This document shows positions 58,969-59,865 of a stretch of 64,000 nt of DNA, piece after piece. The notes beneath the pieces are model-generated. The model worked only from the letters and a program-made list of their open reading frames with translations. It was not told where the DNA came from and did not search any database. Origin of the DNA: Escherichia coli (GTDB lineage Bacteria; Pseudomonadota; Gammaproteobacteria; Enterobacterales; Enterobacteriaceae). Where the stretch lies: assembly GCF_003334305.1 (NCBI RefSeq), contig NZ_QOWS01000009.1; one strand, given 5' to 3'. Within the stretch, counting starts at the first letter, position 1, and every line of letters starts with the position of its first letter. A program made the position numbers and the translations under genes.

Positions 58969-59427
58969 GGGGGAGGGGGGAGATTATGGAACTTTGCTCC
59001 TTGTAAGGACTAATTATTTTTGCATATTACTTCATTAGCTGCGATGATTTTTCTTTAATATTCATTATGTTAATAAGTTCTGGATGAGTGTGCTCTCATT
59101 GGATTTTTTATCCGTCTTGTTCTGCCGCAGGATGAGACTATACATCGTCGAGATCGCAATGATGATATGAGTTGTTCCTCCTGCGACGGCTCTAATCAAA
59201 AAAGAGCAGGAGTGCTTTTCCATCTATTGCGATGATGGCTTTATTATCTGAAGGATGACAGTCACATTTAAAAAATATTTAATCTATAGATCACAATGTA
59301 GGGTCATGGAATATATGTATACAACTATTTTCTTCTTCACTTTTAATTATCGTATTCATTATAAAACTAAGTTAAAAAAACTCCTGGAGAGTGAGTTATT
59401 AATATATTTTTAAATAAAATTAAGTTA

Positions 59428-59865
59428 TCATTCATCGATGCACTTTATAGAATCATCAATGGCCATAATAGTACTATTAACTCTCAATTTTATATTTTTA
59501 TCATCACTACAAATATTAACTGAATTTATATCAATGATTTTTTTATTCTTATCTTTTATTTTATTTACTGTTTCAATGCAATCAGCGGCAAGTTGGAGTG
59601 GATTTAGATTTTTCAGATATGGTCTTATGATCTTTCCCTTACTTAATAAATAGCATGTATAGGATTCGGAAAGTCCAGCATCTATTTTGTACCTCATTAT
59701 ATTAGATAAGGATGTGAGAAATTCCTTGTTATCATTCGCAGCCATATATGCCAGTCCGAGTTCAGCCTCTGCGGCCTTACAGGCAAAATAGCTTAGTGAA
59801 CACGCTTTTCGTCCCTCTTTAGTACTGGCTGATATTAGTGCCCATAATATTGCTTTGTCTGCCAA
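59428..59865 (-). CDS. hypothetical protein in AT-rich region (possible orphan immunity gene)
   Basis: 145-aa ORF in an AT-rich tract adjacent to Rhs-tip remnants; no recognisable motif. Confidence 0.4.
   Translation of the reverse strand: MADKAILWALISASTKEGRKACSLSYFACKAAEAELGLAYMAANDNKEFLTSLSNIMRYKIDAGLSESYTCYLLSKGKIIRPYLKNLNPLQLAADCIETVNKIKDKNKKIIDINSVNICSDDKNIKLRVNSTIMAIDDSIKCIDE

Follow-up and report, generated by a model that had tools for sequence, protein, structure and literature searches.

Two small reading frames between yibH and the RhsA element of Escherichia coli very probably reflect decay of the element's distal end

The AT-rich tract beside the RhsA element

The window analyzed here, a 64,000-nucleotide stretch of Escherichia coli DNA, carries mtlD, mtlA, yibI and yibH followed by the RhsA element, in reversed orientation relative to MG1655. 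Between yibH and the Rhs remnants runs a tract of 24-38% GC, against ~53% in yibH, and it is here that a preliminary description had placed two minus-strand ORFs, one of 145 aa (59428-59865) and one of 52 aa (59065-59223). The position and AT-richness of the tract and the presence of both ORFs are borne out, with coordinates and peptide exactly as described. Read along the minus strand toward yibH, the tract consists of a fragment of an Rhs core end, a dead toxin tip, a frameshifted immunity gene, an AT-rich spacer and an internal fragment of a transposase gene.

Further probable cassettes lie on the Rhs side of the tract. A 314-aa ORF at 61045-61989 (minus strand), comprising an Rhs core end and a C-terminal tip, is intact, while in MG1655 the equivalent pseudogene, yibJ, ends after 233 aa. 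Next comes yibG (60572-61033, minus strand; Sel1 repeats), presumably the immunity partner of the 314-aa ORF. At the window edge, a yhhH-like ORF of 127 aa (62978-63361, minus strand) overlaps the end of a 176-aa Rhs tip ORF (63333-63863, minus strand), and the two look like a further toxin-tip/immunity cassette; in strain 1532WA, yhhH stands after rhsB at the equivalent place.

To gauge which ORF lengths chance alone would give, we simulated the 1.6-kb tract 5,000 times with a first-order Markov model. Just 0.34% of the simulated tracts had an ORF of 145 codons or more (P=0.0034), whereas 89% had ORFs of at least 52 codons, at a mean of 2.2 per tract; in the real tract, three ORFs are exactly 52 aa long. 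By length, therefore, only the 145-aa ORF needs explaining. On the opposite strand, a very hydrophobic 71-aa ORF (59438-59653, plus strand) runs antisense to the immunity gene and most likely results simply from T-rich antisense codons in DNA of high AT content.

The spacer between the immunity gene and the transposase relic (59266-59427) has a GC content of 24-30%. It contains a promoter-like site on the minus strand (59375-59346, TTAACT...GATAAT) that points at the transposase relic, and transcription from it would run antisense into the 3' end of yibH. An RpoD 'constitutive promoter' with the same hexamers has been mapped in vitro between yibV and yibU (Shimada 2014, PMC3946193), and a list of 'promoter islands' includes the region as well (PMC3661553). 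Over the whole tract, promoter-like sites show no excess (7 against 7.8 in shuffles), and no terminator-like site was found. An RNA element was considered as well and rejected, as Rfam gave no match in the tract at E<=1. The mRNA of yibV is reported to be 7.9-fold induced by AZT in K-12; together with the in-vitro binding of RNA polymerase to the spacer, this makes transcription of both ORFs plausible. Of translation we found no evidence. Ribosome profiling had been proposed as a check, and the one supplement consulted (Stringer 2021) has no entry for yibU, yibV, yibH or the 52-aa peptide and nothing in the two MG1655 intervals covered, 3,769,300-3,769,699 and 3,769,900-3,770,099. Since that study targets ORFs <51 aa and the peptide lies just above this limit, its absence is a weak negative.

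The 145-aa ORF and its toxin partner

The preliminary description had recognized no motif in the 145-aa ORF. Pfam, however, returns Imm57 (PF15596) at E=1.2e-47 and 160.6 bits, with ORF residues 2-99 spanning positions 2-100 of the 100-position model; behind this complete domain comes a 45-aa Cys-containing tail. The family has been characterized by the signature 'D, SE, C' and a mostly alpha structure (Zhang 2012, PMC3482391), and the ORF carries the corresponding DAGLSE...C, which is invariant in an alignment with homologues of 24-55% identity. C57, C99 and C124 are invariant in all aligned members, and three further cysteines are common to the close homologues. Existing annotation points the same way: in a 100%-identical strain, PGAP labels 59428-59948 'Imm57 family immunity protein, frameshifted', and in MG1655 yibV is a 'PF15596 family protein', with yibU, yibW and yibS as pseudogenes. 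The K-12 annotations map exactly onto the window, the start of MG1655 yibV falling on 59865, and a y-ome review describes yibV as 'surrounded by pseudogenes'. Beyond Pfam, NCBIfam yielded no meaningful family for the Imm57 and Tlde1 proteins (only a chance HisIE match at E ~0.01-0.03), a PDB sequence search yielded no relative with a solved structure, and we found neither a solved structure nor an experimental test of any Imm57 protein.

The ORF is the portion, downstream of a frameshift, of a 173-codon gene at 59428-59948 on the minus strand, which unites K-12 yibV with its lost 5' end. Alignment with intact copies locates the lesion in a homopolymer at 59918-59924, which is A7 in the window (T7 on the coding strand) and A8, the ancestral state, in intact copies of the same background. 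Through this inactivating 1-bp deletion the original ATG (59946-59948) and the first 28 codons are out of frame, and the 145-aa ORF is left with a TTG start preceded, 6 nt upstream, by a GAGAG stretch. With the frame restored, the 28 codons read MARLLTIVFFFSISASAVTA|RQ..., a Sec-type signal peptide. Intact members of the family begin in the same way, among them a homologue of 55% identity found in another bacterium. Because this signal is lost and Tlde1 toxins act in the periplasm, we infer that the truncated product would fail to reach its site of action even if it were made; most likely it is not made in useful amounts.

The presumed partner of the immunity gene lies directly upstream. At 59953-60318 (minus strand), corresponding to the K-12 pseudogene yibW, is a dead toxin tip of the Tlde1 (LD-peptidase-like) type, broken by one in-frame stop and one frameshift. 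A tblastn search with an intact Rhs C-terminus matched it at 85% identity over 92 aa, with the stop included, and matched a second segment in another frame. The stop is a W-to-stop change and the H...SEGC catalytic motif is still readable; with the frameshift and the detachment from the Rhs core, the remnant has no intact Tlde1 domain (PF10908). Beyond it, at 60320-60571 (minus strand), a fragment of the Rhs core end (the PxxxxDPxGL region) with several stops corresponds to the K-12 pseudogene yibS, and PGAP calls it 'RHS repeat-associated core domain-containing protein, internal stop'.

Intact counterparts of both genes exist in other strains. Strain 1532WA, 93% identical across the tract, has an intact 173-aa Imm57 gene and, 4 nt upstream of it, an intact orphan Tlde1 gene of 135 aa, whose product matches Pfam Tlde1_dom (PF10908) at E=1.7e-07. 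In 2013C-4282 the order is yibF, a gene for an Rhs core protein of 1,389 aa that ends in the same Tlde1 domain (~135 residues), an intact 173-aa Imm57 gene, again at a distance of 4 nt, a spacer and yibH. On the evidence of these gene orders and domains, the partner of Imm57 is predicted to be the Rhs-borne Tlde1/LD-peptidase toxin. A pairing of Imm57 with an RHS-linked Tox-LD-peptidase was predicted earlier (Zhang 2012, PMC3482391) and was noted again in the characterization of the Tlde1/DUF2778 effectors. The literature also reports Rhs-DUF2778 fusions, the action of Tlde1 on peptidoglycan in the periplasm, and Sec signals on those Tlde1 immunity proteins that it examined (Tai5/Tai6; Tldi1a).

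The window sequence is therefore a member of the Imm57 family in the form of a pseudogene: it has the full-length profile match, the signature residues and the adjacency to an LD-peptidase toxin gene (in 1532WA and 2013C-4282, with the toxin remnant in the window), and it lacks the intact frame with an export signal. The earlier suggestion of an orphan immunity gene was right as to kind, but the frameshift has made the gene a pseudogene, its signal peptide is gone, and the toxin beside it is dead.

We then placed this allele in its population, using 5,426 complete E. coli genomes. Of these, 3,728 have the 1,032-bp tract, and in 3,359 it is at least 99% identical. Counting with exact allele-specific 64-65-mers, we found the exact A7 allele of the window in 3,215 genomes, the A8 allele on the same background in 38, and the intact diverged (1532WA-type) allele in 138. 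PGAP annotates a complete 173-aa protein next to the dead toxin in A8 genomes, and the Imm57 gene there is a true orphan immunity gene. Five A8 genomes were sampled; they comprise at least three haplotypes, each of which still has outgroup bases at linked positions (59443 T, 59464 T or 59784 A), which makes A8 the ancestral state and A7 a later loss rather than a switch state.

Decay of the Imm57 gene continues in the population. A second frameshift, T7 to T8 at 59537, is found in 1,004 of the 5,426 genomes, including K-12, where it yields the 111-aa YibV; strain TOE3 has an IS1 insertion in the gene (L010, 2237-2934), and the protein database holds many truncated or fused Imm57 variants. In one 148-aa E. 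coli protein (P0044), a yibJ-type Rhs tip runs in frame into the final 43 Imm57 residues, suggesting that a deletion has produced this variant of the locus. The same 43-residue tail sits on an unrelated protein in a 295-aa metagenome sequence (P0043), probably an assembly chimera.

Two readings would keep the gene alive. In the first, the 145-aa ORF still works as an orphan immunity gene: translation would begin at the TTG or at an upstream ATT, and the product would guard against Tlde1-armed E. coli neighbors. Attackers with an intact Rhs-Tlde1 or an orphan Tlde1 do occur in the species, the Imm57 domain is complete and yibV mRNA is inducible in K-12. The GAGAG before the TTG is a weak SD-like sequence, and two database proteins (P0008, P0009) represent a 169-aa product from the ATT start that keeps part of the hydrophobic leader. 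Yet the toxin acts in the periplasm and the signal peptide is gone, while the conserved cysteines suggest a disulfide-bonded periplasmic fold; moreover, the natural start relied on a 4-nt junction with a toxin ORF that is now dead. The further frameshift in 1,004 genomes and the IS1 insertion in one indicate no sign of selection keeping the 145-aa ORF. A dN/dS of 0.28 between this ORF and the diverged intact allele would, taken alone, look like constraint, but only one SNP and the indel separate the window from the intact A8 allele, so the value reflects history before the frameshift and was discarded as an uninformative test of current constraint. We consider a working immunity gene very unlikely.

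The second reading treats the A7/A8 run as a contingency switch that can revert, or as a place where transcription slips or the ribosome slips by -1, so that the population, or some of its transcripts, would still give full-length exported Imm57. The lesion does sit in a homopolymer of 7-8 bases, both run lengths occur in the species, and slippage by -1 within U7 would give back precisely the ancestral protein, MARLLTIVFFFSISASAV... Seven bases, however, are short for efficient slippage, and the five A8 genomes, with their three or more haplotypes and outgroup states, fit a single ancestral-to-derived loss and do not fit repeated toggling. The imbalance of 3,215 to 38 weighs against a switch as well, as does the second, non-compensating frameshift carried by one third of the broken alleles. 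This reading is extremely unlikely, and the linked-site pattern makes phase variation at the run in particular improbable. The more specific idea that the broken allele yields a trickle of full-length exported protein by -1 ribosomal or transcriptional slippage on U7/A7 is a comparably long shot; if true, it would partly protect cells against those E. coli strains, a minority, in which the Rhs-Tlde1 toxin persists. Loss of function through the A7 deletion is the reading that we carry forward.

The 52-aa ORF and the transposase relic

The 52-aa ORF lies within a relic of a mobile element. At 59033-59265 (minus strand) we identified an internal fragment of an ISAs1-family (H-repeat) transposase gene, corresponding to approximately codons 96-170 of 378 and carrying an in-frame stop and a +1 insertion. 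By blastn the segment is 77% identical over 235 bp to the middle of the transposase gene, and by tblastn it matches in two frames with a combined E=1e-14. The NCBIfam model NF033564 (ISAs1) scores it at 22-40 bits; the cut-off of 70 bits applies to whole proteins, and a fragment of 64 aa would be expected to fall short of it. Similarity to ISAs1 transposases is clear, while a complete gene of ~378 aa with element ends is absent; the fragment is a relic, not an element. The K-12 pseudogene yibU (59065-59263, minus strand) contains the whole 52-aa ORF.

The ORF itself occupies 59065-59223 on the minus strand. BLASTP aligns its residues 16-51 with residues 124-159 of the ISAs1 transposase from the Rhs region of 1532WA at 56% identity (E=1e-10), so that, with NF033564, the statement that it lacks a recognizable motif falls for this ORF too. 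The preceding 28 codons (DCHPSDNKAIIAIDGK...) match the transposase in a different frame. The transposase frame runs through without a shift in 1532WA and 2013C-4282 (E=2e-22, one in-frame stop), from which it follows that a 1-bp insertion near 59180 broke the old frame in the lineage of the window and linked an out-of-frame ATG to it by chance. In those two strains the frame of the 52-aa ORF ends after 29 codons. Conservation of the frame across strains, a check that the preliminary description had called for, thus fails in their lineage.

The idea of a small membrane peptide was the preliminary description's own, as was that of an immunity gene, and in its strongest form it would make the 52-aa ORF a real small membrane protein newly born from transposase debris. 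The hydrophobic core on which the idea drew is real, but it is borderline for a membrane helix: the Kyte-Doolittle maximum over 19 residues is 1.61, the stretch is broken by R, GG and H, and it is inherited from a core strand of the ISAs1 transposase that is conserved at 56% identity. The in-vitro RpoD promoter points at the ORF, and the ORF is intact in ~3,359 genomes of the window lineage; as those genomes share at least 99% identity across the entire tract, this intactness is uninformative. The frame stops after 29 codons in the other lineage and its length is expected by chance. No Shine-Dalgarno sequence precedes it (upstream ...GCCATCATCGCAATAG|ATG), just as had been described, and it is missing from the reported translated sORFs of the Stringer 2021 supplement, which covers ORFs <51 aa. 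With no SD, borderline hydropathy, a frame that is not conserved and a chance-level length, it does not resemble the small membrane proteins, and we find a new membrane protein scarcely credible. We do not consider the 52-aa ORF a gene; it is an accidental frame in the transposase fragment and not an immunity gene, and a membrane peptide is unsupported.

Decay of the cassette and comparison with known systems

Taken together, we assign a probability of roughly 0.9 to the reading in which the distal end of the E. coli RhsA element has decayed to leave this tract, with both ORFs as results of the decay. The comparisons establish the homologies, coordinates, frameshifts, allele frequencies and sequence of events, while a location in the periplasm, neutralization of the toxin and loss of function of the truncated ORF are inferences. 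The ancestor had a main Rhs protein ending in a Tlde1-type LD-peptidase domain, which would attack peptidoglycan in the periplasm of the target cell. Four nucleotides downstream stood the 173-aa Imm57 immunity gene, with its Sec signal peptide and conserved cysteines, whose exported product would neutralize the toxin in the periplasm, and beyond it an H-repeat (ISAs1) element. In the lineage of the window, new toxin/immunity modules pushed the Tlde1 tip downstream, the tip gained its stop and frameshift, and the ISAs1 element shrank to an internal fragment of ~233 bp. In that dead transposase a 1-bp insertion joined an out-of-frame ATG to the old frame, leaving the 52-aa ORF as a by-product. 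The most recent step was the loss of one base from the A8 run of the immunity gene, disconnecting its start codon and signal peptide.

The order of decay is a toxin that died first, an immunity gene left as an orphan (as it still is in ~38 of 5,426 genomes), a homopolymer slip that then spread to ~3,200 genomes, and further losses after it. Read in this order, the tract is a tidy, datable case of decay of a displaced Rhs toxin/immunity cassette, and it illustrates how dead fragments of mobile elements yield small ORFs that look plausible. E. coli also supplies natural intact and broken Imm57 alleles with which neutralization of Tlde1 by Imm57 could be tested. All of the parts were already named: yibV, yibU, yibW and yibS in K-12, Imm57 and Tlde1_dom in Pfam, the 'frameshifted' label in PGAP, and H-rpt in the Rhs literature. 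What we add is detail only, namely the exact lesion, its ancestral state, the allele frequencies and the origin of the 52-aa frame, and it has little import beyond correct annotation.

One close comparison is K-12 itself, in which yibV (b4615), yibU (b4652), yibW (b4651) and yibS (b4650) occupy the same locus in the same order, with 99.8% DNA identity; yibV starts at 59865, and yibU, yibW and yibS map to 59065-59263, 59954-60318 and 60320-60571. K-12 differs by an extra T at 59537 that cuts yibV to 111 aa, whereas the ORF of the window runs for 145 aa to the natural stop. With the Imm57 genes that accompany the Tox-LD-peptidase/Tlde1 domain (PF10908, formerly DUF2778) on Rhs proteins, the window copy shares the full-length domain, the signature and the place directly after the Tlde1 domain at the Rhs C-terminus; it differs in being frameshifted, without a signal peptide, and beside a dead toxin.

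The T6SS pair Tlde1a/Tldi1a (Tae5/Tai5) of Salmonella has a toxin domain of the same superfamily and shares the logic of a periplasm-acting LD-carboxypeptidase/transpeptidase with a Sec-exported immunity protein encoded next to it. The immunity proteins belong to different families, DUF2195 for Tldi1a and Imm57 in the window, and the arrangements differ too: in Salmonella the immunity gene is upstream and the effector stands free in a T6SS cluster, while in the window the toxin is the C-terminal tip of an Rhs protein.

Rhs C-terminal tips are known to carry H-rpt sequences (PMC3032704), and the fragment in the window, with 77% DNA and 56-64% protein identity to the ISAs1 transposase of the same region in 1532WA, belongs with them. 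It retains only ~233 bp from the middle of the gene, with no ends and no intact frame.

Two wider classes complete the comparison. Orphan immunity genes are represented by the 38 E. coli genomes in which an intact Imm57 gene sits beside the dead toxin, and the window gene, being itself broken, is a former member of that class. Polyimmunity islands are the other: the 55%-identical Imm57 homologue is encoded among other immunity genes (Rap1a, MafI2, a second Imm57-like gene), and no toxin accompanies them. This homologue has a signal peptide and lies within a one-strand array of ~10 small genes (L005, 3268-11170) that includes a second, weak Imm57 match, Rap1a, DUF7668 and MafI2 and is flanked by msrB/yeaC-like and pncA/ansA-like genes. 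No toxin gene was called in the array, and it looks like a polyimmunity island.
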